The notes under the pieces: model-generated
The model's input: only the letters and a program-made list of their open reading frames with translations
The model's database searches: none
What the model was told of the DNA's origin: nothing
Shown: in pieces, positions 1,153 to 63,222 of the stretch
Position numbering within the stretch: position 1 is the stretch's first letter
Layout of the letters: the number at the start of each line of letters is the position of its first letter
Position numbers and translations under genes: made by a program
From: Candidatus Cloacimonadales bacterium
GTDB taxonomy: Bacteria; Cloacimonadota; Cloacimonadia; Cloacimonadales; JAIOQZ01
Length of the DNA: 64,000 bases
Assembly (NCBI GenBank): GCA_963662655.2
Contig: CAXXTU010000002.1
Span: forward strand, 3,328,001 to 3,392,000
Direction: 5' to 3'

Positions 1153-1290
1153 ATTGCTTACCGGCGGGGCATCTTCGCCCGATTCCCCCTAACCCCGTGG
1201 ATATACCACGGTTCCGTAAAGGTAGTAATAGAAGAAATCCTCCACCGTGAAACACCACGGGGTTAGGGGGAATCGAACGAATCTGCTCCC
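1153..1290 (-). repeat. Structured hairpin element family A, copy 1
   Basis: Perfect 20-bp inverted repeat 1181-1200/1255-1274, flanked by motifs shared with 13171-13300 and 41459-41593. Confidence 0.85.
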
Positions 1291-1298
1291 GCCTCGAG

Positions 1299-9330: not shown

Positions 9331-9525
9331 TGCACGACTCAGCGCGGCGGGGCGGCGCGTGTGCGGAGCACACAAAACTGAATCGAAGCGCTGCCGGCGG
9401 CTTCGATTCAGTTTAAGAAAGCCCTGAATCCCGACGCGTTCTCCGGAATGAGTTTACAATGGGTTGCAGAACGCGTCATGGGATTGGGCTTTCTGCGCCG
9501 CCCCGCCGCGCAGGGGGTACGTGCA
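9331..9525. repeat. Multibranch inverted-repeat element family B, copy 1
   Basis: 17-bp perfect IR GCGCGGCGGGGCGGCGC at 9342-9358/9495-9511 enclosing further hairpins; related element at 49427-49637. Confidence 0.75.
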
Positions 9526-13170: not shown

Positions 13171-13300
13171 GGCGTGAGCAGATTCGTTCGATCTTACGCG
13201 CAGGCGTGGTGTTGCACGTCTTTTTATTGGAGTTCGATAGTTTTCAAGACGTGCTATATCCACGTTGGAGCGGAAGATCGGGCGAAGATGCCACGCCGGG
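13171..13300 (+). repeat. Structured hairpin element family A, copy 2
   Basis: GGCGTGAGCAGATTCGTTCG...GTGGTGTTGCACG...CGTGCTATATCCAC...CGGGCGAAGATGCCACGCC. Confidence 0.8.
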
Positions 13301-13488
13301 AATTCAAGAGGGCGGAAGGCAATGTCCGACCATCAAGGCATTCTCGATCAATCTGAGCTACGTCGTGTATATAACACGCCTCCGACTTCCTGCACGTAAG
13401 AAACGAGCAGGAAAGTCTCCACCGTGTAACAACACGACTTCGCGATCAGATTCATCGATTCTGCGCTTGATTCTCAGCCGTGACCAGA

Positions 13489-14037: not shown

Positions 14038-15495
14038 CTACCGCAGGATTTTACGCATGAACGTAACCGTGAACACCGCCATCAGGAACAGCCCCATGTA
14101 GCCCTCGAGTCCGCTGGCGACCCTGAGCAACTTCGACGCGGGGAACATGTCGCCGTAGCCGATGGTGAGAAACGTGATCGCGCTATGGTACCCAGCCTGC
14201 CAGGCGGGTGAAAGCTGCTCCACCTTCCCGGCAACGCCCTCGGCCGAACTCCCCGCGAAGCTGTCCCCGCACTGCGTGATGCGCAGATAATAGAAAAGCG
14301 CAAAGCCCACAATGGTCACCGCCGTGCTGACAATTGCCCTGCCGATTCGCACGCCGTAGCCGCTGAGCAGCTCGAAGAAAATGTACTGGAACAAGAATCC
14401 CAAGCCATGCCACAGCAGCTTGAACTTTTTGTACCACTTCCCCTCGATGCTTTCCCAAAACCTGCCGCGCAACTGGTGTTTTTTATATATAAAGTACGCT
14501 TCGTCCTCATCGTTATAGCGGCCCATTTTGCGGAAGTTCTCCTTGAGAAGCAGGGCGGTTTCGGAGGCGCGGTGGTGTTTACCGATAATTGAAAATTGAA
14601 CATCCTTATCCCAAAAATACGTTCGCCTTACTTTCTGAATGAAGCGAAACGTATCTATAAAACAGCAATTTATCCATTGCACGGTTATCACGCTATTGTT
14701 TATGCAATTATCAAATTCAATAAAACCATGCGCAATTTTAAGGGATGTGACCGGAATGTTAAAATAACAATCACTGAAACGCACTGATCGAACATTCTCT
14801 ATCTTCAGCTCTGTTGGGGTATTCCAGATGACTTTGTGAAATCCAATCTGTGTATTTTTGGAGCTTCGAATGTAAAAATTTGATGACAAGCATTCGATTT
14901 GATGAAAACTCATTATGCTATTAGAATTCATAGGTTGACATATAAAAATTCCGGAACCAAACTTTGCGCAATCAAATATTGTTTGCCCAATCCCAAAATC
15001 TACGTATTGAAAACAGATATATTCATTTCCAAAATGCGCACCGTAAAAAGCCATGTATGAATCAGTGCTAGCAAACTGAAACCATAAATCACCTTTCCCA
15101 AAATCTGCATAACTGAAATTGACTGCTCCGCTGAAATTCGAATTGAAAAACGATATATCACCATCATTAAAATCGACTCCGCTAAAATCCAAACCACCAT
15201 CAAAAAGAGCTTCTTTTGCATCGTGAAGGATGACAGGTATAGGCTCATCATTCAATCTCCATCCCAGCGACAATCCCTTCACATAGCAATGATTGAGATT
15301 GATTTCCTTCCCCGCATGGATGTCCGCAAGCACCTCTTCTGGTGTAGTGTAATGATACGTTCGCTTCTCGTATTCATTGCCTTTATCATCAAAGAAATGT
15401 ACGGTGATCCACCACTTGAAGCGTTTGCCATCTACATCTCGGATGTGTGGTTTGCGTACGGGTTCATCCACCTTGTAGCTTGCCCATTTTGCCAT
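14038..15495 (-). CDS. Pentapeptide-like repeat protein with C-terminal two-TM potassium-channel-type domain
   Basis: Repeats FSGVDF/FFNSNF/FSYADF/FYGAHF/FQYVDF; C-terminal YHSAITFLTIGYGD selectivity-filter motif. Confidence 0.8.
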   Translation of the reverse strand: MAKWASYKVDEPVRKPHIRDVDGKRFKWWITVHFFDDKGNEYEKRTYHYTTPEEVLADIHAGKEINLNHCYVKGLSLGWRLNDEPIPVILHDAKEALFDGGLDFSGVDFNDGDISFFNSNFSGAVNFSYADFGKGDLWFQFASTDSYMAFYGAHFGNEYICFQYVDFGIGQTIFDCAKFGSGIFICQPMNSNSIMSFHQIECLSSNFYIRSSKNTQIGFHKVIWNTPTELKIENVRSVRFSDCYFNIPVTSLKIAHGFIEFDNCINNSVITVQWINCCFIDTFRFIQKVRRTYFWDKDVQFSIIGKHHRASETALLLKENFRKMGRYNDEDEAYFIYKKHQLRGRFWESIEGKWYKKFKLLWHGLGFLFQYIFFELLSGYGVRIGRAIVSTAVTIVGFALFYYLRITQCGDSFAGSSAEGVAGKVEQLSPAWQAGYHSAITFLTIGYGDMFPASKLLRVASGLEGYMGLFLMAVFTVTFMRKILR

Positions 15496-16044: not shown

Positions 16045-16121
16045 TGGCACGCCAGCAGGGACTCGAACCCCGGACCTACGGCTTAGAAGGCCGTTGCTCT
16101 ATCCGGCTGAGCTACTGGCGC
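16045..16121 (-). tRNA. tRNA-Arg(UCU)
   Basis: 77-nt cloverleaf GCGCCAGTAGCTCAG...ACGGC CT TCT AA GCCGT...TTCGAGT...GCCA. Confidence 0.97.
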
Positions 16122-16172
16122 GCGTAAAAAAAAGGCTTATCTTTAGCCAAGGCCGTAGATAAGCATATATGA

Positions 16173-16250
16173 TGGTAGCGGCCACAGGGACTCGAACCCC
16201 GGACACTCGGATTATGATTCCGATGCTCTAACCAACTGAGCTATGCCGCC
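16173..16250 (-). tRNA. tRNA-CAU, probably elongator Met; one extra base in the acceptor 3' strand
   Basis: GGCGGCATAGCTCAGTTGGTTAGAGCA TCGGA AT CAT AA TCCGA...ACCA; 78 nt; Ile2 identity not excluded. Confidence 0.9.
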
Positions 16251-16263
16251 ACTCTATTATCAA

Positions 16264-16340
16264 TGGTAGCGAGGGGAGGATTTGAACCTCCGGCCTTCGG
16301 GTTATGAGCCCGACGAGCTACCTGACTGCTCCACCTCGCG
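16264..16340 (-). tRNA. Initiator tRNA-fMet(CAU)
   Basis: C1:T72 mismatch, GGG/CCC anticodon stem, CAT anticodon, encoded CCA. Confidence 0.96.
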
Positions 16341-41458: not shown

Positions 41459-41593
41459 ATTGCTTACCGTCGGGGCATCTTCACCCGTTCCGCCCCTCTG
41501 CGGGGATATACCGCAGCCTAGATTATAATGAGAAGAAAGGCAGCAAGGCTGTGAAACACCCCGCAGAGGGGCGGAACGAACGAATCTGCTCCC
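41459..41593 (-). repeat. Structured hairpin element family A, copy 3
   Basis: Perfect 19-bp IR GTTCCGCCCCTCTGCGGGG at 41487-41505/41559-41577, with the same flanking motifs as copy 1. Confidence 0.85.
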
Positions 41594-41732
41594 TCCTCCG
41601 GGTGGCTTTTTGGGGGAGGTTGTTTGATCCCATTAAACAAATGCAGAAAAAAGAATTACTTGACCATGAGGCAGCAAACGAAAACGTTGCCGTCTGTAAG
41701 GGGAGATATACTGTAGTGGGAGCAGCAAGAGA

Positions 41733-49426: not shown

Positions 49427-49637
49427 GCACAGGCTCAGCGGCGGGGCGGCGGCGTGTGCGCTTTGCGCACTTACACATTAGGAATCGCTTTTTGTTCTGA
49501 AAGCGATTCCTAATGTGCAGGTAAGCCTTTGGGATTTTATGATTGATTCGAATACGGCGGTGTAATGGAAGATTGAGATTGCTCTGAGTTTGTTGACGAT
49601 GGCTTACCACGCCGCCGCCCCGCCGCGCGGATGGTGC
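49427..49637. repeat. Multibranch inverted-repeat element family B, copy 2
   Basis: 19-bp perfect IR 49438-49456/49608-49626; inner 18-bp IR 49474-49491/49500-49517. Confidence 0.75.
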
Positions 49638-50035: not shown

Positions 50036-50938
50036 ATGGAAAAACAGGTAAAGAACCAAATCATCATGAAGCATTTCTGGTGTGACGAGTGTAGTCACTA
50101 CTGGAAAACGAACGACTTTCGTGAAGACGCGTCGATCGAAGGTGATTACAGGTTCTTTTCACGTTGTCCTATGTGCAACGAAGAGAGGATCAACAAGCAC
50201 CATTGCTACGGTCAGCTTGAAAAAGCCTGGGCAAGTGCAACGGGGCCACAGACAGAGAAAGGCAAGAACCGTGCGCGGCTGAATGCCGTTAAGCACGGGA
50301 AGTACATGAGAGTGCTTACTGCAATGGCTCCCGCGAAGTATGGGAAATACTCGAACTGTGATAAGTGTGACGAGAAGAAAGAATGTGAGGCTGGCGAAGT
50401 TCGGTACTGCCCTCATCAACGTGGGATTATGCTCCGTTTTTTACAGGCGTACGAGGACGGAGACGTTGAGGCTTTGAAGGCTTATGCCGCTATGGCGCAA
50501 GCAAGGACGATGGGCGTTCTCGATAACATCTTCGCCGAGATACTTAACAGGGGCGTATTGATTGAAGAACCGAAGCTGCGTTCGAACGGCGAACAAGCCG
50601 AGACTTCCGAAGGTATTCCTATCGTCGAGATCAAGCGCAACCCACTTATAAAACAAATTCCCGAAATGATGAGAACCCTTGGGTTCGAAGCCGAACAGCA
50701 GAGGATGACTCCGGCAAGCAACGACGCAAAGGATACTGATCCTTCGGGAAACCTAAAGGGTATTGAGACCGCATCCGACTTTCTCAAAGAGTTAAGGGAA
50801 ACTCTTAATACTGCAATCGACGGGGTGTCGTTGAAAAAGCGAAGGGAACAGGACGAGATTTTGCAGGCACTTGAGCACGACGGTTCGATTGAAAATGTGA
50901 AGGTAGAGTACCCTAACAAGAATGTATTTAAACCGTGA
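50036..50938 (+). CDS. Putative terminase small subunit with Cys clusters
   Basis: ATGPQTEKGKNRARLNAVKHG motif, several CxxC, IKRNPL; directly upstream of TerL. Confidence 0.65.
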   Translation: MEKQVKNQIIMKHFWCDECSHYWKTNDFREDASIEGDYRFFSRCPMCNEERINKHHCYGQLEKAWASATGPQTEKGKNRARLNAVKHGKYMRVLTAMAPAKYGKYSNCDKCDEKKECEAGEVRYCPHQRGIMLRFLQAYEDGDVEALKAYAAMAQARTMGVLDNIFAEILNRGVLIEEPKLRSNGEQAETSEGIPIVEIKRNPLIKQIPEMMRTLGFEAEQQRMTPASNDAKDTDPSGNLKGIETASDFLKELRETLNTAIDGVSLKKRREQDEILQALEHDGSIENVKVEYPNKNVFKP

Positions 50939-52548
50939 TGTCAGGCGTAACAAGCAAGGCCGATAAGAGGCTCGAATTTTACAGAAATTTAGCGCAACAG
51001 GATATAGTATTAGCGTGTTTGCTCTTTGCAAAGGACATATGTGATTGGACTCCGAGATATCATCAGATATATCACATCAAGGAGATGCTCAGTAATCAGC
51101 GTGTTCTCAATGTTCTCCCCCCGAGATCGGGGAAAACCTCAGAGACGGAGCTGGTTGACCTTTTTGACTGCGTGATTAATCCGTGGGAAGAGCTTCGTTT
51201 GTATTGCCCGAAGAAAGAACAGGGCAAGGAGGCGATGCGCTACATTTACAACTGGATCAACGAATCATCAATTCTGCATTCCTTTCTACGGAAACACAAT
51301 GGAAAGCCGGTTCTCTCTCATGAACGATTCGAGTTTGCGAACATGAGTATTGGGGAAGTGCATTCCGTTGCGGCCAAAGTCGAAGGGCATAACGCGACGA
51401 TTGCGAGACTCGAAGAATTCGACGACTGGAAATTCGAATGGTTTTCCGAGAAGGTCATGAGGCGTATCGCGGCCCCTAATAAGAACGGACTTCCTACAAG
51501 AATCAGGATCACGGGAACGATCAAAGGACAAGAGAACATCTTCCGCATGGTTACAGAGAAGGGGCTGAGTTCGCAGTATAAAAACCTGATGGTACATCCT
51601 GTGATGGGGATTCTGGACGTTCATGCAATGATTGAGTGCGGCGCGCTCGACCCTGATGCGGTTGAACAGCAACGCCTTACAATGCCTCCAGACGAGTGGG
51701 CTCGATCGATGCTGCTCAAGTTTACCGAGGCAACCAACTTCATTTACAGCCGTTATCTCAGAGAATCGATGAAGGCGGCCATGGAGTGGGACATTCCGCT
51801 CGATGGGATTGATCCATATCGAGACGGGTATTACCAGACATGTGGGAAAATCGCGATCGGTTTCGACTGTGGACATTCAGGGCAATCGAAAGAGTCATCC
51901 GTCTATTCGCTTCAAGTTGTGGAGGAGATAGGCGACTGGCGACGCTGGATATACGCGAAGAAGTGGGCACCGGATGTAGATGAATCTCAGCTTCAGGATG
52001 AAGTGTTCGAGATTTTCCGTTTCTTCAAGCCTGATGGCGGATATGGCGATGCGCTGCAAGCCAACACCATTCAGAGCATCAACAAGCGGCTTTGGCGTGA
52101 GGGAATATCCTTCTTAAACCCTGAAGAGCATCCCGAGAATAACGCGTCGAACTGGAAGAGATGGTATTTCTCTCCCCTATGGAATACAGGGAAAGAGAAA
52201 CATTTCTACTATTCGTCGCTTCGAAACGGTGTTCACGGAGGTAAGTTCTTCTTCCCATACTACGACGCGAAAGATACCAGGCCGATTGCAATCATCTGCA
52301 AGCAAACCATTCAGAGTATTCTCAATATCCGGCAAGAGACCACAGCAGGACAATACCCGAGATATTACGGAGCATCCAACGAACACGGTGACGATCATGC
52401 CGACGCGCTGGGAATGGCGTGTCGATGGCTCGACGATCACCGCGACATACAAGTCAACTACAAGCTGGTTGAGGGCCACGGTGAGCACAAAATGATCACC
52501 GGACTGAAACGCACGAGATTGTCGTCCAGGATTATGGACGACTTCTAA
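50935..52548 (+). CDS. Terminase large subunit
   Basis: Walker A PPRSGKT, Walker B RLEEFDD, ITGT coupling motif, nuclease IGFDCG and GDDHADALGMA. Confidence 0.88.
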   Translation: MMSGVTSKADKRLEFYRNLAQQDIVLACLLFAKDICDWTPRYHQIYHIKEMLSNQRVLNVLPPRSGKTSETELVDLFDCVINPWEELRLYCPKKEQGKEAMRYIYNWINESSILHSFLRKHNGKPVLSHERFEFANMSIGEVHSVAAKVEGHNATIARLEEFDDWKFEWFSEKVMRRIAAPNKNGLPTRIRITGTIKGQENIFRMVTEKGLSSQYKNLMVHPVMGILDVHAMIECGALDPDAVEQQRLTMPPDEWARSMLLKFTEATNFIYSRYLRESMKAAMEWDIPLDGIDPYRDGYYQTCGKIAIGFDCGHSGQSKESSVYSLQVVEEIGDWRRWIYAKKWAPDVDESQLQDEVFEIFRFFKPDGGYGDALQANTIQSINKRLWREGISFLNPEEHPENNASNWKRWYFSPLWNTGKEKHFYYSSLRNGVHGGKFFFPYYDAKDTRPIAIICKQTIQSILNIRQETTAGQYPRYYGASNEHGDDHADALGMACRWLDDHRDIQVNYKLVEGHGEHKMITGLKRTRLSSRIMDDF

Positions 52549-52567
52549 AATCGATAAGGAGGAATTC

Positions 52568-53047
52568 ATGCGAAAACGATTTATTTCCATCATGCTACTG
52601 ATCGTTCTGACTTTGTCATGCACGATGGCATTGGCCGAGAATATCGGCAAGGATATGGGGCCACCGGATCAGAATGTCACCGGAGGGCGGATTGACGAGA
52701 ATACCGACACAACAGTTCGTCAGTATATCCTCCCGATCCTTGCGCTTGTAATCGTGACGGTGCTAACGCTGGTATTCAAGAAGAGCAACATCACAAAAGA
52801 CCGAATCCTACGACTGCTTACCGAAATCTGGAATATCATCGTCGATATCGATAACGACACCTCTTCACCGAACAACAGCCATACACGAGCGTCCCGGAAG
52901 CAAAAGACGCTCGCCAGAATTGAACAGGTAATTCCGAAGAAGGATAAAAGCCTGCTCGAAAAGACGTTCGGAAGCCTCAGCGGAGCGGTTGAAATGGCCT
53001 TTCAGGTATTCAAATACGGTCGTCCAATCATCAAGAAAATATTTTAA
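52568..53047 (+). CDS. Phage membrane protein (signal peptide plus TM), holin-like candidate
   Basis: Two hydrophobic segments, basic tail, AAGGAGG RBS. Confidence 0.5.
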   Translation: MRKRFISIMLLIVLTLSCTMALAENIGKDMGPPDQNVTGGRIDENTDTTVRQYILPILALVIVTVLTLVFKKSNITKDRILRLLTEIWNIIVDIDNDTSSPNNSHTRASRKQKTLARIEQVIPKKDKSLLEKTFGSLSGAVEMAFQVFKYGRPIIKKIF

Positions 53048-53088
53048 CAACGGCACGGGATAGCGGATGAAAAGACAGGAGCGCGGAC

Positions 53089-55320
53089 GTGATTAATGAA
53101 CATCGAGCGAAACGGATCAAACGGGAAAATCGACTGATACTTGAAGAAGTGACCCGCGCTCCTCGTCATCTGGCTACTTTACAAGGACGTTCACCGTACG
53201 AAAATCCCGATCGACAGGCGAGCAGGCGAGGTATCGAATACCTTGAGACGCACGTTGAATCGGACGGGCAGTACAAGTCTCAGATTGAAAGCCGTATCTC
53301 CGGTGTGCTGAAAAACCGGTATGAGATCGAACCGGGACACCAGATAATCGACGGGAAGAAGGTCGTTACGCAACGCGATGCCGAGATTGCCGAATTTGTA
53401 AGATGGAATCTGGAACACGTTCCAAGCTTCATCACCGATCTGAAGGCGATGCTCTCTGCAATCAGCAGGGGATTCAGCCTTTCGGAAATCAACTGGAAGC
53501 GCATTACGTCCGGTCAGTATGCCGGAAAAATTGGAATTCAGAATATCCGGCACAAGGAACAACGATATTTCTCGTTTGCCTTCGACGACATGGGATATTT
53601 TCAGCCAACGATGGTTGATCCCGAATACCGGCGGCTTCCCTTGAATAAGTTTATTCATGTCATTTCAGGCATCGACGACGAAAAGCCGTTCGGAACCCCG
53701 CTGGCAAGTCCTTGCTCGTTTTACACATGGCTGAAAAAGGGCGGATTCAAGGACTGGTCGTATTTCCAAACCCGATTCGGCCAACCGCTGGTAAAGGTGG
53801 GCGTACCAGAGAATACGCAAACCGGCGATGATGCGGACAAGGCGGCCACACGCATCTTCGAGGCTGCTGAAAGAGGGACGGGAATCAAGGTACCGAAGAA
53901 TCTGGATGTGTCGTTCCTTGAGGCGATGAGATCGGGAACCGCAACGCAGAAAGACTTCGTGGACGCATGTAATCGGGAGATCAGCGTTACGGTATTGGGT
54001 GTAACGCTTACGACCGACGAGGGGAAAAACACCGGTACGCATGCACTGGGATCGGTTCACGCAGAGAAAGAGGCAACGACAATTCTCTTCGACTCGATCA
54101 TGCTTTCCTCAGCCATTAACGATCAGTTGATCAAACGCCTGGTCAATTTCAATTTCCCCGGTGTCGAGAACTATCCGCGGTTCATTCTACCCCACTTCAA
54201 CTACTCGTACTTTGTGGCATTCGCTCAAGGTATTATGGCGATGGTTCAGGCGGGAGTGAAAATCCCGATGAACTGGGTTCGAAAAATCGCAATGCTTCCG
54301 GTTCCAGAAGAGGGCGAAGAACTCGTTCAGCAGGTAATCCAGACAATCACGAACGCTCAGGGAAAGGGAATCGACAACAAGGCCAAAGAGGCACATCAAC
54401 ACCACATCGATAACGATCGCGCGATACAGGACGGATTTGGAAGCCATTTCTCTGCAGAAACGGAGATCGAGAACTTGAACGTGAAATTGATCATGGACAA
54501 CGATCCCATCATTCGACGTTACGCCGGATCCGTGAGCGTCATTCTCGAAGACGAGATTCGCAAACTGATTCCGTCAATCATGGTATCGGGCACAATACCG
54601 GAGAAATCCGACAAGCTGAACCAATCCATTGCCACCCAGATAAACGAAATGATGGTGTTGGGATATCTCAGGGGGATGTACTCCATTCGAAAAGAGACCG
54701 AACACCTCGCTACATTCACAGAGGAGACTCAGGAAGAACCCGCCGCGCATTCTCTTCTGTTCGCACCTTTCAACGAAATCGTCCAGGAATACCTCAACCT
54801 TATCGAGCTGAACAAGGCGGCGTACGACCTTATCAGTGAGACGATGAAGCGTAAGGCTTTCACGGTGGCTGGCGTATTCAGCGAGAAAGGATTGAACGCC
54901 TTACATACGGCTATCGGAGAAGGGCTTGAAAAGGGACTCACTCAGGTTGAAATCGAGCTTAAGATGTCACGAGAGCTTAACCGATTAGGGCTTTCGGGAC
55001 TTCGGAGCTGGCATTCAGAATTGATTGTCAGAAACAACCTCATGGAAGCCTACTCCGGCGGACGAGAGAAGGTGTTGTCATCACTTAGTGATACGGAATT
55101 CCCTGCAAGGCAAGTTCTGTGCATCCTTGATGTCAGGACAAGGCCAAGTCACGCTGCATTCCATCGATTTACACGACCGCTGAACGATCCAATATGGAAC
55201 ATGCTACACACGCCATTTGACCACAATTGCCGGTGTACGATCCGCGCTATCCACAAATCGGAGAGCTACACGATTACCGAGGTATTGCCGGATATGTCCG
55301 GACTGGGGTTTGTCCAATGA
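53089..55320 (+). CDS. Portal protein (Mu gp29/DUF935-like) fused to Mu gpF-like head morphogenesis domain
   Basis: AISRGFSLSEINW, RFGQP, NREISVTVLGVTLT, GTHALGSVH; C-terminal KAFTVAG, RNNLMEAYSGGR, DVRTRPSH, PFDHNCRC. Confidence 0.85.
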   Translation: MINEHRAKRIKRENRLILEEVTRAPRHLATLQGRSPYENPDRQASRRGIEYLETHVESDGQYKSQIESRISGVLKNRYEIEPGHQIIDGKKVVTQRDAEIAEFVRWNLEHVPSFITDLKAMLSAISRGFSLSEINWKRITSGQYAGKIGIQNIRHKEQRYFSFAFDDMGYFQPTMVDPEYRRLPLNKFIHVISGIDDEKPFGTPLASPCSFYTWLKKGGFKDWSYFQTRFGQPLVKVGVPENTQTGDDADKAATRIFEAAERGTGIKVPKNLDVSFLEAMRSGTATQKDFVDACNREISVTVLGVTLTTDEGKNTGTHALGSVHAEKEATTILFDSIMLSSAINDQLIKRLVNFNFPGVENYPRFILPHFNYSYFVAFAQGIMAMVQAGVKIPMNWVRKIAMLPVPEEGEELVQQVIQTITNAQGKGIDNKAKEAHQHHIDNDRAIQDGFGSHFSAETEIENLNVKLIMDNDPIIRRYAGSVSVILEDEIRKLIPSIMVSGTIPEKSDKLNQSIATQINEMMVLGYLRGMYSIRKETEHLATFTEETQEEPAAHSLLFAPFNEIVQEYLNLIELNKAAYDLISETMKRKAFTVAGVFSEKGLNALHTAIGEGLEKGLTQVEIELKMSRELNRLGLSGLRSWHSELIVRNNLMEAYSGGREKVLSSLSDTEFPARQVLCILDVRTRPSHAAFHRFTRPLNDPIWNMLHTPFDHNCRCTIRAIHKSESYTITEVLPDMSGLGFVQ

Positions 55321-55841
55321 CATTCATGCAAGCGGAACAACCATACAACTTAAGGACGGAACCAATGGGAAACCAGATTTCAGAACAATTCGTAAAGACG
55401 ATTGAAGCGCAATTGGTTCGCCATGAGGGCGAGAAACTCAAGCCGTACCGGTGTCCGGCCGGCAAGTGGACGATCGGCGTGGGGCGGAACCTGGAAGACA
55501 GGGGCATTACAACCGACGAACTAGTGAAAATCTTCAGGGAAAGCGGCATTACAGAAGAACAATCACGAACACTGCTTCGTAACGACATCAATGCAACGAT
55601 TCAACAACTGAACCGGCATCTTTCCGAGGTATTCAACTCCCTGAACGACTCCCGAAAGGCCGTGCTGGTGGACATGGCGTTCAACATGGGAATCGGGGGG
55701 CTGCTGAAGTTCAAACGGATGATTCAGGCACTAGGAGTCCGCGATTATGAACGCGCGGCGATTGAGATGCTGGATTCACGATGGGCGCGACAGGTGGGAA
55801 GGCGCGCGAACAATCTTTCAGAACAAATGAAAAGGGGATAA
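55317..55841 (+). CDS. Phage lysozyme (GH24/T4-like endolysin)
   Basis: HEGEKLKPYRCPAGKWTIGVGRNL, LVDMAFNMG, EMLDSRWARQVGRRA. Confidence 0.92.
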   Translation: MTFMQAEQPYNLRTEPMGNQISEQFVKTIEAQLVRHEGEKLKPYRCPAGKWTIGVGRNLEDRGITTDELVKIFRESGITEEQSRTLLRNDINATIQQLNRHLSEVFNSLNDSRKAVLVDMAFNMGIGGLLKFKRMIQALGVRDYERAAIEMLDSRWARQVGRRANNLSEQMKRG

Positions 55842-55846
55842 ACGCT

Positions 55847-56260
55847 ATGGGAAACAAAAGCAATCTTGAGATTAAAACCGAGCCTACAGAGAAGGTTTCA
55901 ATCACCATACACACCGATATCGATACACTCGTATTAGCTGGCCCAATGATGGTAAAGAACGGACTTGGATCACTTCTTCTTGGTAGATCGGAAGACGAAT
56001 CAGAAAAGGGCGGACTGCAAAACACAATGTACACATTGATCCAGGAACTCTGGTTTACCGGTGAAATCAAACCCTTTCTCCGTACGATTTTGCATATCGA
56101 TGAACTTCCTAAATTCACCTTCCGTGAGACATGGGAGATTGTCGGGGTTTTTTTAGGACTGCTCACGATGGGATCGAGCGGGGGTACCGACGATGGCCTG
56201 AAGCGAGTAAGCAATCCAGAGGAAGCGACAGGACGGAGACTGGGCATCCGTTTCGCATAA
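55847..56260 (+). CDS. Phage protein, possible tail assembly chaperone (gpG-like)
   Basis: 137 aa; in-frame T TTT TTA heptamer overlapping a -1 frame ORF that runs to 56406. Confidence 0.5.
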   Translation: MGNKSNLEIKTEPTEKVSITIHTDIDTLVLAGPMMVKNGLGSLLLGRSEDESEKGGLQNTMYTLIQELWFTGEIKPFLRTILHIDELPKFTFRETWEIVGVFLGLLTMGSSGGTDDGLKRVSNPEEATGRRLGIRFA

Positions 56261-56378
56261 TCAAGTTCCAGCTCATGCAGATTGGGGTGTATCACCCTGG
56301 GATGCCGATCGATATGGCACTGGAATTTTACGGATATTGGCTAAAACAGGAAGCAGCAAAGAAGAAGGAGATTGAGAA

Positions 56379-56675
56379 ATGGCAGCGGCGAAAAGGATAT
56401 CGGTAACGGCTATTCTGGTGTGCGTAATAACGGCCCTGTGGGGCGTGGTTTACTGGCAGATACAGGGAAACGAGGACGGCATCGAGGAGAACAGGAAATC
56501 CATCGTGTTGATCTACGAGAAGATCAGCGACCTTGAAAACGGACAGATTACCAAGGCTGAATTCAAGGAGATTGTGGCTGACGGGTTGAAGGCTTTCAAG
56601 CTGGATTGCATTGAAGAGGGAAGCATGTTCGTACCTGGTGCCCAACCACAACGGAAACCGGAGAGCAGACCATGA
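56379..56675 (+). CDS. Small phage membrane protein with coiled coil
   Basis: One N-terminal TM; overlaps both neighbours. Confidence 0.6.
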   Translation: MAAAKRISVTAILVCVITALWGVVYWQIQGNEDGIEENRKSIVLIYEKISDLENGQITKAEFKEIVADGLKAFKLDCIEEGSMFVPGAQPQRKPESRP

Positions 56676-57889
56676 GCAAGCAATTATTCAAGTACTATCG
56701 CCACGAGAAGAACCAAGACGGAAGCTACAACATCTACGGCGTCGAGGTGTTCATCCTGGGATTACATCGCAAATTCAACTACGACAAGACATGGTTCGAG
56801 CGAGCGAAGCAAAATCATGAAGAGAAGACAGCCAAGGGGAACTTGCCGCCGATCTTCATCGGGCACAACGATGGAACAGAGAAACGCGCTTGCGGGTTCT
56901 TCGACAACCTTCGCCTCAATGGCGACATGGTTGTGGTGGATTTCCTGAAGATTCCGGCATCTATATTCGCTCTGATTGCAGATCGAGCATATCCGAACCG
57001 CTCTATTGAGGTTTGGGAGAAAAACGCATACATAAGCGGAATCGCTCTTTTGGGATCAAGCGAACCTTTCCATAAGCTTCCGAGCCTGGAGATCGACCAT
57101 ACAGAACAGATCATGGCTGCCAGCGTTCCACTCGGCGCAGCCGTACATTTCTCGACGTACGATGACGGCAAGCTCACCCACGTAATGACTTTTGGCCATC
57201 AGGACGACGACGACACATCCTTCTTCAATATGTTCTTCCGCTGGTTGATGAACTCGAAGAAGATGGAGCCAGGGGACACTCTTCGATTACTCATGAATCA
57301 TTTCGACAACATCAAAAAGGAAGAACCGCAGGACACGGCAGGCAACCCTGATGGCGGGACTCAGACAGAGGACAAAAACGGCACACAAAAGAAACCAGAA
57401 GCAGAAGCAGAAGGAGAAGGAACTATGGATTTCAATGAGGAATTCAAACAGAAGTATGGGATGACTCCCGAGGAGTTCGTTGCAAAGCAGAAGAAAGAAG
57501 CTGAAGAGCGGCTCCGAAGGGATCGAGAGCATTACGCCAGCCTGTTCAAGATCAAGCTGGATGGAATGGACGTATGCCCCGCGATTACCGAAAGCGTTCA
57601 TGCTTTTATGGAAGCTGGTACGGACGAAAAGGTGCGGTTCGGTAAAGACGATCTCGATCACCGAGAGGCTTTCGAAAAGCTTATCACCGACATCATTGAG
57701 AAGGCTACGGAAGGCGAACTCGTGGTGAACATGCAGGAAACCGCGGGTGGCAAGGGAACACAGAACTTCGACGACGACGACGACGATCCGGTAACAATCG
57801 ACAAGGGTATCAAGAAGATCATGCGCGAAAAGGGCGTGGATTACAACGAAGGATTCGAAATCTTCTTCGTAGACAGGGGAGGTGAGTGA
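56672..57889 (+). CDS. Mu-like prohead protease/scaffold (gpI/gpZ-like)
   Basis: PIFIGHN, ACGFF, YPNRSIE, GIALLGSSEP; acidic linker and helical C-terminal half; precedes capsid genes. Confidence 0.78.
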   Translation: MSKQLFKYYRHEKNQDGSYNIYGVEVFILGLHRKFNYDKTWFERAKQNHEEKTAKGNLPPIFIGHNDGTEKRACGFFDNLRLNGDMVVVDFLKIPASIFALIADRAYPNRSIEVWEKNAYISGIALLGSSEPFHKLPSLEIDHTEQIMAASVPLGAAVHFSTYDDGKLTHVMTFGHQDDDDTSFFNMFFRWLMNSKKMEPGDTLRLLMNHFDNIKKEEPQDTAGNPDGGTQTEDKNGTQKKPEAEAEGEGTMDFNEEFKQKYGMTPEEFVAKQKKEAEERLRRDREHYASLFKIKLDGMDVCPAITESVHAFMEAGTDEKVRFGKDDLDHREAFEKLITDIIEKATEGELVVNMQETAGGKGTQNFDDDDDDPVTIDKGIKKIMREKGVDYNEGFEIFFVDRGGE

Positions 57890-58356
57890 TGAGCTTGCAC
57901 GGACGAAATACGGGCGCAGTGGTCTCGGTGGATGCCACTGAAGATATTACCAAGCGGCGACTTGTTACCGCTGGCGGCAAACACGAAGCGAACAAACTCG
58001 CAGTGGGCGCAGCGATCTACGACCAGGACGATGGAAAGTCGGCAAGCATTCAGCAATACGGTATTGCTGAGGTGGTCACAGGGGCTGCCGTGGCTGTTGG
58101 CGATCTGGTGAAGAGCGATGCGGACGGAAAGGTCGTCCCCTTGGCAATGGTCGATTACACCCCAACAACCAGCGCATTGGTTGGCGGGGGAACCGTCGCG
58201 GAACTGGCAGCGGAAATCAACACGGCACTCAACATCGAACGGGGGCTTATCCAGGCAGCAATCAACGCGAACAAGGCTGAAGTTGGACGTATCTGCGGAC
58301 GCGCACTCCAATCGGCTGAGGGCGCAAATGAAATCATCCGAATCCAACTGGCGTAA
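57886..58356 (+). CDS. Capsid cement/decoration protein (DUF2190-like)
   Basis: GIAEVVTGAAVAVGDLVKSDADGK and GRALQSA motifs. Confidence 0.72.
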   Translation: MMSLHGRNTGAVVSVDATEDITKRRLVTAGGKHEANKLAVGAAIYDQDDGKSASIQQYGIAEVVTGAAVAVGDLVKSDADGKVVPLAMVDYTPTTSALVGGGTVAELAAEINTALNIERGLIQAAINANKAEVGRICGRALQSAEGANEIIRIQLA

Positions 58357-58367
58357 GGAGAATAGAA

Positions 58368-59384
58368 ATGAAACAGAAGCTGAAGCTGACAACGAAATCA
58401 GACTACAAGAACATGAATATCCAGCAGCTCCGGAAGTTCGTCGAGCAGTTCGAGGCCCGAGACTCTCAGTTGAGGGGAGACACACATCCCATTGTTAAGG
58501 GTATGCTTCTCGGGGCACTCTATCCAGGCTTTATCGGAGACAAGGCGGTTCCGACGATCGAAACCCTGACTCAAGCCGGTACCTATCTGATCGGTGGAGA
58601 CAGAGAGGGGCTCGACAAGCATGAGACCAAGCGCGCACTGGGCAGCAAGCCGAACACGGTGAGCATGTCGAACAGCTCGGCGAAGTTCGCTTGCGAGGAA
58701 AGGGCACTGGAAATCGAGCTCGATTACGCGGAGCTCGATATTGCAGAAGCTCACGGAGCCAAAGAAACACTGAAATTGAAACGTCGTGCAGGGCACATCA
58801 TCCACTACATTCTACATCTAGTCAGGGAGCTCGAAATAGCGGAAAAGGTGTTCGGGTACGACAACTATGATTCGGGGCAAAGAATAACCCTGTCAGGATC
58901 CGACCAATGGAGCGACAACGATAGCGATCCCGAAGGCGTTATCATAGACGCAGTGGAGGCGTTTGAAACCCAGGCGGGGATTTCACCGAACACCCTGATC
59001 CTTGGCGTGCAGGTTTACAATACTCTCAAGCAACATCCAGCACTCAAAAGCTTCATCAGCGATAACCGCTCCAAGAAGGTGCGTCATGAGGATATGCTCG
59101 AGTTTTTCGACGTTGAAAACATCCTCGTTGGTAAGGGCATCTATCGCGACAATGGGGTCGTCTCCAGAATTTGGGGAAAGAAAGCAGCCCTGCTTTATCT
59201 GCCGCCGGAAGGAATGCAGCTCGATATCATGCCGTATCACACGGTCAATTTCGAATGGAAGAAACGCTTCGATGTCCGCGAAGTAGCACGCGAGGACACC
59301 GTCGCGCTGAAGGAATACATGTCGTACCAAATCCAGACCTTGAGCAAGAAATTCGGGTATCTCGTTGAAGGCGCGATAGCGTAG
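58368..59384 (+). CDS. Major capsid protein
   Basis: 338 aa; LSGSDQWSDNDSDP, PNTLILG, LKQHP, IWGKKAALLY, C-terminal GYLVEGAIA. Confidence 0.85.
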   Translation: MKQKLKLTTKSDYKNMNIQQLRKFVEQFEARDSQLRGDTHPIVKGMLLGALYPGFIGDKAVPTIETLTQAGTYLIGGDREGLDKHETKRALGSKPNTVSMSNSSAKFACEERALEIELDYAELDIAEAHGAKETLKLKRRAGHIIHYILHLVRELEIAEKVFGYDNYDSGQRITLSGSDQWSDNDSDPEGVIIDAVEAFETQAGISPNTLILGVQVYNTLKQHPALKSFISDNRSKKVRHEDMLEFFDVENILVGKGIYRDNGVVSRIWGKKAALLYLPPEGMQLDIMPYHTVNFEWKKRFDVREVAREDTVALKEYMSYQIQTLSKKFGYLVEGAIA

Positions 59385-59392
59385 GGGGACGT

Positions 59393-59713
59393 ATGATCAA
59401 GATCAAGACGAATATCAGGCACAATCATGTGTTGTACACGATTGGGCAAACCGTAGATGACATTCCTGGGCTTCCCGAGGTGGAGCGAAAGGAGATGATA
59501 CGGCTTGGGAAAATCGAGGTTATCCCCGATCCTCCAACAGCAGGAAGTAAAGAAGTGTATCGCGTAATCAAGGAAGAATCCGTGGAGCGCATGGACGGCA
59601 CCTTTCTGGACATTGGCGATCTTGTAACCGAGGACATGGAATTTCCGAAATCAATCAAACAGATGTTGCATTTCGGCTGGATTGAGCCTCAAGCAGAGAC
59701 AGGAGACAGATAA
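59393..59713 (+). CDS. Phage hypothetical protein following the capsid gene
   Basis: RBS, two short similar halves, operon position. Confidence 0.6.
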   Translation: MIKIKTNIRHNHVLYTIGQTVDDIPGLPEVERKEMIRLGKIEVIPDPPTAGSKEVYRVIKEESVERMDGTFLDIGDLVTEDMEFPKSIKQMLHFGWIEPQAETGDR

Positions 59714-60249
59714 TGGGAACATTAACAAGACCGACAGGGTTAGCAACGAACAGCTTCGACGATGCGCTACGCATCTGGAAGAAGCACTGTAGATTGTATG
59801 TTTCCGAAGGAATTGCCGGAGACGATAACACACCCGCAACCAAGGAAGCCCTTGCCGCATTGATCGACGCCAGCACCGGCGTTTTCGCCCCACTGGGCAG
59901 GCTAACCGAAGATTCCGGAGAACTCGACTGGGAGCAATTCTTCGATAAAGTATCAGAAGGAAAGGCTCTTGGTGATGTTGAAGTTACGGCGACGGCGAAC
60001 GTCATCGCGATTGACTCAGACCAACTTGCGTGGCTGGACAGCGCGAACGCGAAGAAGAAGCTTTCTCTCCTCGCGATACCGCTCGATCGGGACGACGAAT
60101 TCGTAATCATTTCCGGCGTGGACATGACTCACAAGGGCAAGATGCTCTTCAACGGCGGCCTCAGCCATTGTGACCTGACCTTTTCGGGAGTCTATTCGAC
60201 GATTGGGGCGTGTATCAAGGTAGGAACCGGCTTGACATCAGGAACGTAA
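59713..60249 (+). CDS. Phage structural protein, possible tail tube
   Basis: 178 aa, beta-rich pattern (FAPLGRL..GEL, VEVTA, DLTFSG). Confidence 0.5.
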   Translation: MGTLTRPTGLATNSFDDALRIWKKHCRLYVSEGIAGDDNTPATKEALAALIDASTGVFAPLGRLTEDSGELDWEQFFDKVSEGKALGDVEVTATANVIAIDSDQLAWLDSANAKKKLSLLAIPLDRDDEFVIISGVDMTHKGKMLFNGGLSHCDLTFSGVYSTIGACIKVGTGLTSGT

Positions 60250-60325
60250 TACAATCCTCCCCCCCCTCCCCTCCATCGATTCTTGTGGGAATTCAGGATG
60301 ACCTGGAGGGGAACAGGGCGAGGAA

Positions 60326-60667
60326 ATGGAGGTAGAAATGTTTGGAAGTATGTATCTCGATAAGAACGGGCATCCTCTTTATATCGGGAAATCCGAGTTT
60401 ATCGCCGACTTGGACGGAACGACAGAGGCGGTAAGCTATCCATCGAGCGGAACCTTTAGCGAGAAGAAGTTTCTTCGCTTAACATCAGAACTCGGGAACT
60501 TTCGGTATGGGATCGGTTCCGCACCGACCGTTGACGGAAGTAATGGCGTACTGGTTACCGAAGGTGTTGTCGAACTTACCGAAGTCGATGCTGGAGAGAA
60601 GCTCACGATTCACGGCAGTATTGTGAATGTATGCGAGCTGAAAGGCAAGCAAGCAGCGGGAGTATAG
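60326..60667 (+). CDS. Phage hypothetical protein
   Basis: ORF with RBS, abutting the next gene. Confidence 0.6.
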   Translation: MEVEMFGSMYLDKNGHPLYIGKSEFIADLDGTTEAVSYPSSGTFSEKKFLRLTSELGNFRYGIGSAPTVDGSNGVLVTEGVVELTEVDAGEKLTIHGSIVNVCELKGKQAAGV

Positions 60668-61519
60668 ATGTCTGGCTTTGGACGGATTGGATTTGTGAAT
60701 CGATCGCGGAATCCACGGAAAGCAGTCAAGTTCTTGGCGACGATCACCGATTACGCCAATCAGACGATCGTAATCAATGCCGGATGCATGTATGGTCATT
60801 CTGCGGCCATTCATTGGGGAGACGGTAATATTACTCCGATTGCCGGCACGGGAAGCGCTTCTGATCGTCCGCATCAATATTCAAAGAACGGCGTCTTCAA
60901 CATCGTGATTCTTGGCGATATCGGGTATGTAATGCGCGTCGAGATAGCAGGTCAAAGCCTTGTAAATCTGATTCCAAGCAGCCTATACGGGCTTACGAAT
61001 TGTCTCTATCTTTCCTTTTTCGGATCTGCCACGAGTATGGAATTATCGCCTAGAATGGCCGGGCTTCCGTCCCTGCAATTTTTTGTGGCCCGTGACCGCT
61101 GTTTCGGAGATGCGGCGTATCTGGCTCTGTGCGAAAATCTCGGATACATCGATATCCGGGAAGCTGACAGGGCACGTGGTGATGTCGGTGCCTTGCTCGG
61201 GCTGCCGCTGGGCTCAATATTCGCAAACAACGCAGGATTTTCTGCATACACGCCCGGCGTGTGTGCCTGGCATGTCGGATTTGTCGGTAATTTCTCCGGC
61301 AACTATGATTTTTCGGACTTGCATATCGTACGCATGTTGATCGACATGAAAACGGCTCGATCGTCAGGCTGGTCGGCCACCGTTACCGTCACGGGCTGTA
61401 ATAGGGGCTCATGCACGATAGCAAACCTTGATGTAGCCTTGGCGACAATCAAGGGCGTTCCTGAAGCCTCGATCGTTGAGTACCTCGATGGCACAGGGAT
61501 CATATTAAACACAAATTAG
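60668..61519 (+). CDS. Phage protein with PKD-like N-terminus and LRR-like repeats
   Basis: IHWGDG..HQYSKNGVFNI; LYGLTNCLYLSF, LPSLQFF, LCENLGYIDI, GDVGALLGLPL. Confidence 0.55.
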   Translation: MSGFGRIGFVNRSRNPRKAVKFLATITDYANQTIVINAGCMYGHSAAIHWGDGNITPIAGTGSASDRPHQYSKNGVFNIVILGDIGYVMRVEIAGQSLVNLIPSSLYGLTNCLYLSFFGSATSMELSPRMAGLPSLQFFVARDRCFGDAAYLALCENLGYIDIREADRARGDVGALLGLPLGSIFANNAGFSAYTPGVCAWHVGFVGNFSGNYDFSDLHIVRMLIDMKTARSSGWSATVTVTGCNRGSCTIANLDVALATIKGVPEASIVEYLDGTGIILNTN

Positions 61520-61527
61520 GGGGATGT

Positions 61528-61713
61528 ATGGCTGTATATAACTCAAACGCCTGGAGAATTGTGATCTATAACAATCGCCTGATATGCCTGACCGACTCCG
61601 AAAGCACGATCACAGACTATACGTGCGTCGAGTTCGACACCCGGGAGCAGGCGATTGAATACCTGGAACAGAATGGGATCGATTTCGAGCCATCAGCTAT
61701 CGGGGAATTGTAA
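61528..61713 (+). CDS. Small phage hypothetical protein
   Basis: GGGGG RBS; stop overlaps the next start. Confidence 0.55.
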   Translation: MAVYNSNAWRIVIYNNRLICLTDSESTITDYTCVEFDTREQAIEYLEQNGIDFEPSAIGEL

Positions 61714-62240
61714 TGCAGTACACAACCATTGAGAACGTTTTATTACGAATCCCCACGGGGATTCCCAAGGACTTCGAGAATCGTATTATCGAAGCGAATC
61801 CCGAGATTACCGAGGTGGAAAAGAGCGATGCCTGGCTGGCGAAGGTGCTGGAGATCATCGAAGAGGCTTCCGAGAGGATTGATGCCAAGCTGAAGCGATA
61901 CAAGAGGATTTACCATGACGGAACACAGAAGTTCCCCGATGTGACAGACGATCCGCCCACCCCATCCATCATAAGGATTTTATGTGAATTCGAGTGCGCG
62001 TATTCGACGGGTGTGTTCTTCGCTGGAGTAAGGCGCGTACGAACTACCGAAGATGAACAGTACCTTCTGAAGCGGATCAAAGAACGTTACGACGAGATCA
62101 ACGACGGCAGTGTCGTGATTGCAATCGGGGGCGTTGAGGCTTCCAGCGCGTATGAACCGGACTACATCGATCGAGATAGGGGGATTACGCAAGAGGGGAT
62201 GTCCGCCTTCTTCAGTTACGAAACCGAGGAAGAACGATGA
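61713..62240 (+). CDS. Head-tail connector (Mu gp36/DUF1320-like)
   Basis: MQYTTIE, IEEASERIDAKLKRY, PSIIRILC, EINDGSVVI. Confidence 0.72.
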   Translation: MQYTTIENVLLRIPTGIPKDFENRIIEANPEITEVEKSDAWLAKVLEIIEEASERIDAKLKRYKRIYHDGTQKFPDVTDDPPTPSIIRILCEFECAYSTGVFFAGVRRVRTTEDEQYLLKRIKERYDEINDGSVVIAIGGVEASSAYEPDYIDRDRGITQEGMSAFFSYETEEER

Positions 62241-62659
62241 GCGGATACACCAACCAGGCGGAAAACGAACTGGTATCAATACTGAATGAGCTCAACGCGA
62301 AGAACAATTGGGGCATCAGGCTGATTCATAAAAAGACGCGATTCGATTTGAACTACGCCGACCACGAACTTCCGGCTGTGAGCGTGAAGGTGGTGAGCAG
62401 AACGAAAGGTGAGCACATTGGGAAAAAGCTTTCCGGCAACATACTGGTCATGTCGATCGGAAGCGATTGGCATGAAATCCAGGAGGTGAACGACGACCTT
62501 GCAGACGCGATCGGTGATGCGCTGGAATCGTGGAACCCGAAGAATTGGAATTTCGCTTCGTTCAAGGTAATCAAGACAAGTAACATCGGTGATCAGGCGA
62601 ATGCGACCGATTTCTTCTATATGAGCCGGATCGACTTTGTATTTCAATACGTTGGGTAG
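62237..62659 (+). CDS. Putative tail terminator/completion protein
   Basis: 140 aa, ELPAVSV motif, position. Confidence 0.5.
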   Translation: MSGYTNQAENELVSILNELNAKNNWGIRLIHKKTRFDLNYADHELPAVSVKVVSRTKGEHIGKKLSGNILVMSIGSDWHEIQEVNDDLADAIGDALESWNPKNWNFASFKVIKTSNIGDQANATDFFYMSRIDFVFQYVG

Positions 62660-63172
62660 ATGAACCGGATAAATATCCCCGAATTGACACCTGAGACCAT
62701 CGAAAGCTTCGGGAAGCGAGCACAGACATATATGTACTCGCAAATCGTCAGGCAATTCGATGAGAACGGCTTGGGCGGAACATCGCGGGGTGTGATTTGG
62801 GATTATTACAAGCCGTGGTATTACCGAGTTACCGACAACACGGATGTCGATATCTTCGGACAGACCCCGAGGATACGCCCGAGCAGGTACGGCCACACCG
62901 GAGACAATATCCCTGCCAAGCTTCGGGACAATAAGAAAGAGTACGATCGCAGGTATCAGATCGGAGACAAGCTTCTTCAATTTACCGGACGACTCAAAAA
63001 CGCTTTAGTAAGCGATATGCAAATCGATGGAAATATCATTACGCTGATAACGCCCGTGAAATATGCGGCGAAACAGAACGACTCGAGACCCTTCAATTTC
63101 TTCACCGATGAAGATGCGAGTGTCATCGGGGAAATGGCAGTGGATGAGGTTGTAAAGAGAGTAGAGGAATAA
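62660..63172 (+). CDS. Virion morphogenesis protein (Mu gpG-like)
   Basis: RQFDENG..W, LLQFTGRLKNAL, VKYAAKQN..RPF. Confidence 0.72.
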   Translation: MNRINIPELTPETIESFGKRAQTYMYSQIVRQFDENGLGGTSRGVIWDYYKPWYYRVTDNTDVDIFGQTPRIRPSRYGHTGDNIPAKLRDNKKEYDRRYQIGDKLLQFTGRLKNALVSDMQIDGNIITLITPVKYAAKQNDSRPFNFFTDEDASVIGEMAVDEVVKRVEE

Positions 63173-63222
63173 ATCCTCTCAATCTCCTCTTATCAGGGGA
63201 GTGTTAAGAAACGGAGACTGGA

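Follow-up and report, generated by a model that had tools for sequence, protein, structure and literature searches.

Genus-restricted, fork-oriented repeats of folded-DNA type in a Cloacimonadales bacterium

Here, we describe a family of long imperfect hairpins in the genome of a Candidatus Cloacimonadales bacterium (G000, the genome under study) and of three congeners (G001, G002 and G003). It is a real and previously undescribed family of folded-DNA repeats, restricted to one genus and oriented with the replication fork. With a probability of about 0.5, we regard the hairpin as a non-autonomous, REPIN-like element, i.e. a folded single-stranded DNA (ssDNA) site that is read by its shape and copied and recombined at the replication fork. 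Its near-strict polarity makes a long-standing question testable, namely by what route non-autonomous palindromic repeats are copied and which of the fork's strands is involved.

Copies, distribution and anatomy of the hairpin

A sequence-only reading of one stretch of G000 (64,000 nucleotides, hereafter the window) had reported three copies at 1153-1290, 13171-13300 and 41459-41593. All three are present with the boxes described, and only their ends were off by a few bases. The count itself was too low: the window contains a fourth, divergent copy, which brings its total to four, and about 135 are found genome-wide. The copies of the window and the parts of copy 1 are as follows:

1163..1293, minus strand: copy 1, whole hairpin; starts 5 nt past the dinB stop codon; fold strand on the leading-strand template
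1272..1293, minus strand: copy 1, left side of the base: 6-bp basal stem, bulged A, and outer box with a tandem GA and two T that pair with G
1259..1271, minus strand: copy 1, left variable spacer arm, 13 nt
1247..1258, minus strand: copy 1, left inner box, TGTT side
1210..1246, minus strand: copy 1, apical part (stem and loop, variable), 37 nt
1197..1209, minus strand: copy 1, right inner box, TATAT side, with one extra T
1184..1196, minus strand: copy 1, right variable spacer arm, 13 nt
1163..1183, minus strand: copy 1, outer box and basal stem of the right side
13171..13297, plus strand: copy 2, canonical type; spacer interrupted by a GNA-type internal loop; cGATAg loop; lagging-strand template (the minority orientation); 3' of an intrinsic terminator
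13332..13471, minus strand: copy 4, divergent; tail-to-tail with copy 2; 70.6 bits; leading-strand template
41469..41596, minus strand: copy 3; perfect spacer stem, imperfect basal stem; leading-strand template; in a divergent gene gap

Of 104 strict pattern matches, 74 went into a profile. It gave 174 matches at 137 loci of G000, which were merged (E < 0.001) into approximately 135 elements, about one per 28 kb, dispersed among housekeeping genes. Four additional variant copies were found after this set had been made. A covariance model built from 40 copies was used to scan the congeners and returned at least 34 rows in G001, 41 in G002 and 65 in G003, corresponding to at least 33, 33 and 59 loci, respectively, once antisense duplicates were removed; these are minimum counts among 150 candidates per genome. 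The same model gave no match in 37 other genomes of the order. No copy was found in the sister genera, nor among the best 21 candidates per genome in 148 genomes of the phylum outside the genus; viral contigs, plasmids and phages gave no match, and each of eight pattern matches in metagenomes was without a second arm. The earlier judgement that this is not a known family holds: a search of 10 copies against Rfam returned microRNA-precursor look-alikes only, all of them sub-threshold, and we found no earlier description in the open-access literature. In the window as a whole Rfam recognized tRNAs and no family matching the hairpin; three tRNA genes are located at 16048-16340 on the minus strand.

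Hairpin copies often lie directly downstream of stop codons, and 56 of 135 are in convergent gaps, compared with 188 of 884 gaps overall (crude ORF calls). The majority are single. There are eight tail-to-tail pairs, six of which combine a canonical copy on the minority strand with an atypical partner on the majority strand. The highest pairwise identity among copies is 0.93, and 16 of 9045 pairs exceed 0.85; nearby copies are occasionally near-identical.

Arm pairs could be parsed in 124 of the 135 elements (11 failed), and after two loopless ones had been dropped the set comprised 116 hairpins of type A and six with the inner box reversed. From the base of the unit, which is roughly 100-140 nt long, the order is a free 6-bp stem, a bulged A, three pairs, a tandem GA/GA and a 10-bp box, above which follow a free stem of 11-14 bp, the inner box (TGTT facing TATAT, with an extra T) and a further free stem with its loop. 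The bulged A is found in 105 of the 122 parsed copies, the tandem GA/GA in approximately 100 (GG in most of the remaining ones), and the two T-G pairs of the 10-bp box in 105 and 106. The inner box, extra T included, is invariant in 116 of 116 copies of type A. Three unparsed copies have a TCTT variant, so the inner box is not absolute. In the congeners TGTT faces TCAT in 14 of 87 copies and the two strands of the box are exchanged in 17 of 87, which suggests that it functions in either orientation.

The two boxes are about 27 bp apart. The spacer between them measures 13/13 nt in 54 of 124 copies, 12/12 in 21 and mostly 11-14 overall; near-perfect pairing is found in 48 of 116, and a purine GNA/GNA internal loop in about half. 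Thus, the middle stem is indeed paired and free in sequence, as had been claimed, and the fixed length attributed to it has to be given up; its variation by 2-3 bp makes an exact nuclease ruler, one of the functions first considered, doubtful. The outermost stem varies with compensation, and the basal pairing reported earlier is imperfect in copy 3. The terminal loop (9-301 nt) is free in sequence. It may also house another repeat, family B, whose units are about 72 nt long and contain two small hairpins and GNA loops: 28 of 55 family B matches are nested in hairpin-family loops in a fixed orientation, and others form free tandem arrays. Examples of family B are found at G000:C2 (C2 being a contig of G000) 606542-606880, 772290-772610 and 1736752-1737024.

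No arm pair enclosing a gene was found within 600 bp, and lone arms number only five. A lone left arm at G000:C2 2168324-2168355 (minus strand) and a lone right arm at 2209971-2210046 (plus strand), 41 kb apart and on opposite strands, have nearly complementary spacers and are possibly one copy split by an inversion.

Folding as DNA and orientation relative to replication

When folded with RNA parameters, copies 1-3 gave z-scores of -11.9, -9.4 and -7.4, and none of 200 shuffles was equally stable. In all three, the strand named by the sequence-only reading folds better, and its claim of preferential folding of one strand is borne out. The alignment of 40 copies has two-sided changes at 33 of 41 pairs and 93.6% of its cells paired, a level reached by none of 500 shuffles and well above the 35-45% of slid controls (relatedness among copies was ignored in these controls). 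Structure and approximate spacing are conserved while the stem sequence is free, as had been proposed.

The family behaves like folded DNA and not like RNA. When DNA parameters are used, the top strand is the better-folding one in 116 of 124 copies, at energies that differ by only about 10% (-40.4 vs -36.2 kcal/mol). On the fold strand, G-T is far commoner than A-C, with 42:0 at one of the inner pairs. The loops belong to the DNA-stable types cGNAg and cGNNAg, and 45 copies carry cGATAg or cGGTAg loops. The motif CGNAG occurs 243 times on the fold strand vs 33 times on the opposite one; in DNA, d(GNA) loops closed by a C-G pair have unusual stability (PMC3201870).

The origin is at dnaA (skew minimum at 2,767.7 kb of C2, with DnaA boxes), and a dif-like site at 796.6 kb marks the approximate terminus. 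On C2, 97 of 130 copies have their fold strand on the leading-strand template (P 2e-8), or 98 of 130 if the skew maximum is taken as the terminus. Where the transcription context is symmetric the bias persists, at 38:16 for convergent and 13:0 for divergent gaps. Of 63 tandem gaps on C2, 42 have the fold strand in antisense, and this proportion depends on the replichore, being 33:7 beside leading-strand genes and 9:14 beside lagging-strand genes; for reference, 1260 of 2323 genes in G000 are leading-strand genes (crude ORF picks). Polarity is stronger still in the congeners, where, as judged from local skew, 33 of 34, 22 of 23 and 27 of 30 fetched copies (82 of 87 in total) are on the leading-strand template.

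Other repeats do not behave in this way. Family E, a second long-hairpin family of G000 in which 47 of 65 matches could be oriented, has a polarity of 20:27 (Fisher P 1e-4 vs the hairpin family), and five other congener repeats have no bias in their free copies (7:6, 10:10, 4:8, 17:13 and 8:7). Weak trends were seen in two more, with 5:0 for free REP-C and 15:8 for family J. The copies of the hairpin family on the minority strand score no lower than the others (medians by strand 90.2 vs 89.6, P 0.57), which favours biased insertion over removal as the origin of the bias.

Segment exchange, turnover and genome rearrangement

Across 115 copies, distance matrices of paired segments correlate at 0.55-0.88, and those of neighbouring segments across a box at about 0-0.15. 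Copies that share a spacer have different loops in 20 of 30 pairs. At orthologous sites of G002 and G003 some copies are nearly unchanged; others keep their flanks and basal stem and have both spacer arms or both loop-stem arms replaced, and at some sites the flanks are kept around a hairpin of a different subtype. Since complementarity alone correlates paired arms, these data reveal segment exchange with re-pairing and not its mechanism. In congeners that are about 78% identical, copies have been retained at corresponding gene ends, a pattern that fits selection at each site as well as turnover. Where a shared gene end has a copy in both congeners, the orientation is always the same.

Empty orthologous sites, which the sequence-only reading had proposed to look for, do exist, and filled vs empty syntenic sites occur in both directions. 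They are too diverged for an exact end or target to be read, and no target duplication was seen at these sites, which are too diverged or occupied by another repeat. Contigs from three sequencing runs, at low depth over a 20-kb stretch with four copies, contained no empty site or excision joint; apparent joints in them derived from other hairpin copies. Excision of the inner module at the GNA loop would be expected to leave collapsed hairpins capped there; none were found.

Synteny breaks are a preferred place of hairpin copies. Among gaps of 100 bp or more in the 40 congener stretches of 20 kb that were fetched, those with a copy coincide with a break relative to G000 in 38 of 46 cases and those without in 59 of 134. 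Stratification by gap type and length over more loci (L128, which has almost no G000 orthologues, was left out) gave odds ratios of 6.0 (P 0.012), 5.2 (P 0.13) and 8.5 (P 0.013), and all these tests share G000 and loci picked around copies. We regard this as an association, which is confounded by operon boundaries attracting copies and breaks alike. If the link were causal, the hairpins would constitute a chromosome-wide shuffling system.

Relative to G000, the orientation of a copy to the flanking gene in common is preserved in only 18 of 34 cases, and no more than about half of the gene blocks keep their fork orientation, vs 28 of 28, 30 of 33 and 18 of 20 blocks among the congeners. With half of the blocks reoriented and yet three quarters of the G000 copies fork-oriented, the G000 copies were likely gained or replaced after the gene blocks had been scrambled.

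Some direct copies flank variable genes. In G001 an AT-rich orphan gene of 313 aa lies between near-identical direct copies, as does a block of 14 kb; in G002 and G003, two direct copies enclose a secreted-protein gene at a place where G001 has one copy. No foreign-gene signal was seen beside the G000 copies, where GC is below 45% in 10 of 236 genes vs 168 of 2290. Individual genes near copies include two AT-rich orphans after rnhB (L090 9383-10324 and L010 1848-2972), which by eye appear PIN-like and related to each other and whose proteins have no Pfam or NCBIfam match. Low-GC genes with an ion-channel domain precede a copy on its 5' side at three congener loci (L119, L120 and L130); this gene family is also present at 14038-15495 of the window, and one member contains pentapeptide repeats.

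Related systems, competing explanations and neighbouring elements

In its ecology the hairpin family is REPIN-like and in its design attC-like, and it departs from each in a defining respect. With REP, REPIN and BIME it shares many extragenic copies near gene 3' ends, an imperfect hairpin with one better-folding strand, mosaics of repeat types and vertical persistence in one lineage; inverted doublets are represented by the eight tail-to-tail pairs, most copies being single. Unlike REP sequences (21-65 nt, with GTAG or CGTC at the foot), its unit of roughly 100-140 nt has two mismatch boxes, and flank base counts revealed no GTAG-type or CGTC tetranucleotide at the foot of the stem. Unlike REPINs, it has no master sequence, its replication polarity is strong, and its paired segments are exchanged in folded register; no cognate transposase was found beside a copy. 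For REP families we refer to PMC3733652, and for the decay of REPINs without a RAYT to bioRxiv 10.1101/2021.07.10.451892.

Several other systems resemble the hairpin in part. The ends of IS200/IS605 elements and their palindromic derivatives are likewise single-strand hairpin substrates whose strand choice is tied to the fork; the hairpins differ by the opposite resting polarity, and no TnpA or TnpB beside copies and no autonomous parent were found. ERIC/IRU and Correia-type repeats are imperfect palindromes of about 130 bp between genes, with a consensus sequence and terminal repeats. By this description the size and dispersal are similar, whereas the sequence of the hairpin stems varies freely and a target duplication was not seen; nor are there the sequence-conserved terminal inverted repeats of a MITE of a DDE insertion sequence. 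Plasmid Frpo and ssi sites are long folded ssDNA promoters or priming sites with two motifs at a roughly fixed spacing, which the hairpins share, but the boxes misfit sigma-70 hexamers and the hairpins are chromosomal and multicopy. An Xer dif/pdif or IMEX attP site would have two Xer arms around a 6-bp centre. Some inner boxes resemble by eye the XerC arm of the dif-like site, but this candidate was rejected, as the key position varies over four bases and there is no second arm.

To our knowledge, known bacterial folded-ssDNA sites each have a known enzyme (IntI for attC, HUH enzymes for REP and IS200 ends, Xer for phage attP). The signs of such a site where none of these enzymes adjoins it point either to an unrecognised ssDNA-processing activity or a known one used anew. 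Among the enzymes searched, none is common to the four genomes and linked to copies, and the co-occurring HUH/RAYT transposase or recombinase suggested by the sequence-only reading was not found beside any copy. Y1_Tnp was not found in the G000 assembly and occurs 3, 2 and 6 times in the congeners without adjoining a copy; 10 fetched Y1 loci contained no hairpin copy either. Among tyrosine recombinases, only XerC and XerD are common to the genomes, and xerD was rejected as a partner, since it ends beside one copy only, which was judged to be chance. IS91 is absent from the genus, and TnpB from all five genomes searched and from the surroundings of copies. Reverse transcriptase (none in G001, one broken gene in G000, no copy in its loci), IS110 (G002 only, no copy in the fetched loci), and GIY-YIG and DUF559 (no copy within their loci) were also rejected. 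The 79 short genes beside copies are ordinary and unrelated by eye, and the one enriched paralogue family (47 of 235) is a large cluster of mostly secreted-type proteins, as labelled by eye. Absences in G000 are weak evidence, since its assembly, through gaps or losses, is without eight of 132 genes common to the congener loci, rnhB included.

The first candidate nevertheless comes from the congeners, where a REP directly precedes 24 of 87 hairpin copies on the 5' side in a fixed order. The same REP flanks a 137-aa Y1 TnpA between xerC and dinB; at L012 (G003) and L013 (G001) this IS200-like gene overlaps the end of dinB and is followed by its own REP array. The dinB locus of G000 has no Y1 TnpA, and copy 1 occupies the end of dinB. 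The TnpA-linked REP is upstream of none of the 135 G000 copies, though G000 has the most copies. For IS200/IS605 HUH enzymes, both insertion and excision take place on the lagging-strand template (PMC6006769), which is the opposite of the hairpins' resting orientation. Given the fusion of its REP to many congener copies, our guess is that the enzyme is an HUH (Y1) nuclease acting in trans.

The favoured REPIN-like reading could then work as follows. The active form would be the folded top strand, on which a protein may read the two mismatch boxes, and the element would spread in trans, much like REPINs. It is possible, if doubtful, that new copies are joined so that the fold strand comes to lie in the newly made lagging strand and, subsequently, on the leading-strand template. 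Exchange between copies, together with arm-to-arm copying, would keep the stems paired, and recombination between copies may cause part of the rearrangement. Against this reading stand the lack of a linked enzyme gene and of a master sequence, and the opposite strand rule of HUH enzymes.

We consider it unlikely that the hairpins are instead attC-like sites scattered over the chromosome, between whose folded copies a host recombinase exchanges strands without any integron array, such that gene blocks are excised, inserted and moved, foreign genes captured and hairpin segments exchanged. As in attC, identity resides in the fold, with an extra unpaired base, a free terminal loop and one preferred strand, and direct copies sometimes flank variable genes (the orphan gene and the 14-kb block of G001, the secreted-protein gene of G002 and G003). 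The recombination core of attC is a paired AAC/GTT, whereas the only conserved GTT of the hairpin faces TAT, giving G-T and T-T mismatches. Moreover, the hairpins are single dispersed copies among housekeeping genes, with boxes about 27 bp apart and neither cassette array nor IntI: no integron integrase exceeds the TIGR02249 cut-off in any of nine genomes. The preferred strand itself agrees: of 30 sedentary integrons, 25 have their attC bottom strands on the leading-strand template (PMC5371416). The enrichment of copy-bearing gaps in synteny breaks and the fork orientation kept by congener gene blocks would also fit, but a strict cassette model does not predict retention of orientation in only 18 of 34 cases relative to G000, genes beside copies are not low in GC, the loci were chosen around copies, operon boundaries are favoured by copies and breaks alike, and shared repeat mosaics could recombine through RecA. 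If true, this reading would mean an integron without an array, i.e. a chromosome punctuated by fork-oriented ssDNA recombination sites, with an undescribed enzyme.

It is improbable, in our view, that the hairpin is a host replication site (for priming, helicase loading or fork restart) maintained by selection and homogenised by gene conversion. The near-strict polarity, the intact boxes of old, diverged copies and the long persistence at the same gene ends would be explained; on the other hand, no copy was found in the sister genera, copy number varies severalfold, a quarter of the G000 copies occupy the other strand at no loss of score, and no sigma-70-type promoter match was found around copies 2 and 4.

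We give even less credence to arm copying as the explanation of the pairing. Traces that would fit include two copies whose outer box has been corrected to a perfect palindrome, three that share one deletion between short direct repeats, one apparently split by inversion, and the 48 of 116 perfect spacers. Such copying would erase the mismatch boxes, yet these survive in nearly all copies of four species; the DNA folding energies of the two strands are only about 10% apart, the other long-hairpin family of G000 is unbiased, and SbcD gave weak matches only, none above cut-off in five of five genomes.

Very improbable is a structured RNA family, i.e. a protein-binding or processing hairpin in untranslated regions as allowed for by the sequence-only reading, for in spite of the strong covariation, the G-U-type pairs and tandem GA on one strand and the frequent position just past stop codons, the orientation follows the fork and not transcription (mostly antisense in tandem gaps, switching with the replichore), the loops are of DNA-stable types and Rfam offers sub-threshold microRNA-precursor look-alikes only.

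The hairpins share the intergenic space with other elements. Family E, present in the window at 9347-9506 and 49441-49620, is a long hairpin with GC-rich paired ends and a side hairpin with a GNA loop; its inner hairpins vary freely, pattern matches number 51-65 in G000, and no replication bias or occurrence in the fetched congener loci was seen. Two of about 13 copies of an ISL3-like transposase (labelled by eye; e.g. G000:C2 2159353 and 2239499) lie directly beside family E copies. Congener intergenic regions are ordered mosaics of at least five repeat families (L120 17858-18204, L125, L126, L129 and L130), and in one case a short palindrome gives way to a complete mosaic of about 340 bp at a site that can otherwise be aligned. 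The bin of G002 appears to be mixed: its contig C10 duplicates the pdxA-rnhB block and carries G000-type copies as well as genes absent from G000, and part of its contig C9 is 98% identical to G003. Finally, Mu-like prophage genes (portal, Mu F-like, cement and capsid) occupy 50036-64000 of the window, and several related Mu-like segments elsewhere in the genome could drive rearrangement.
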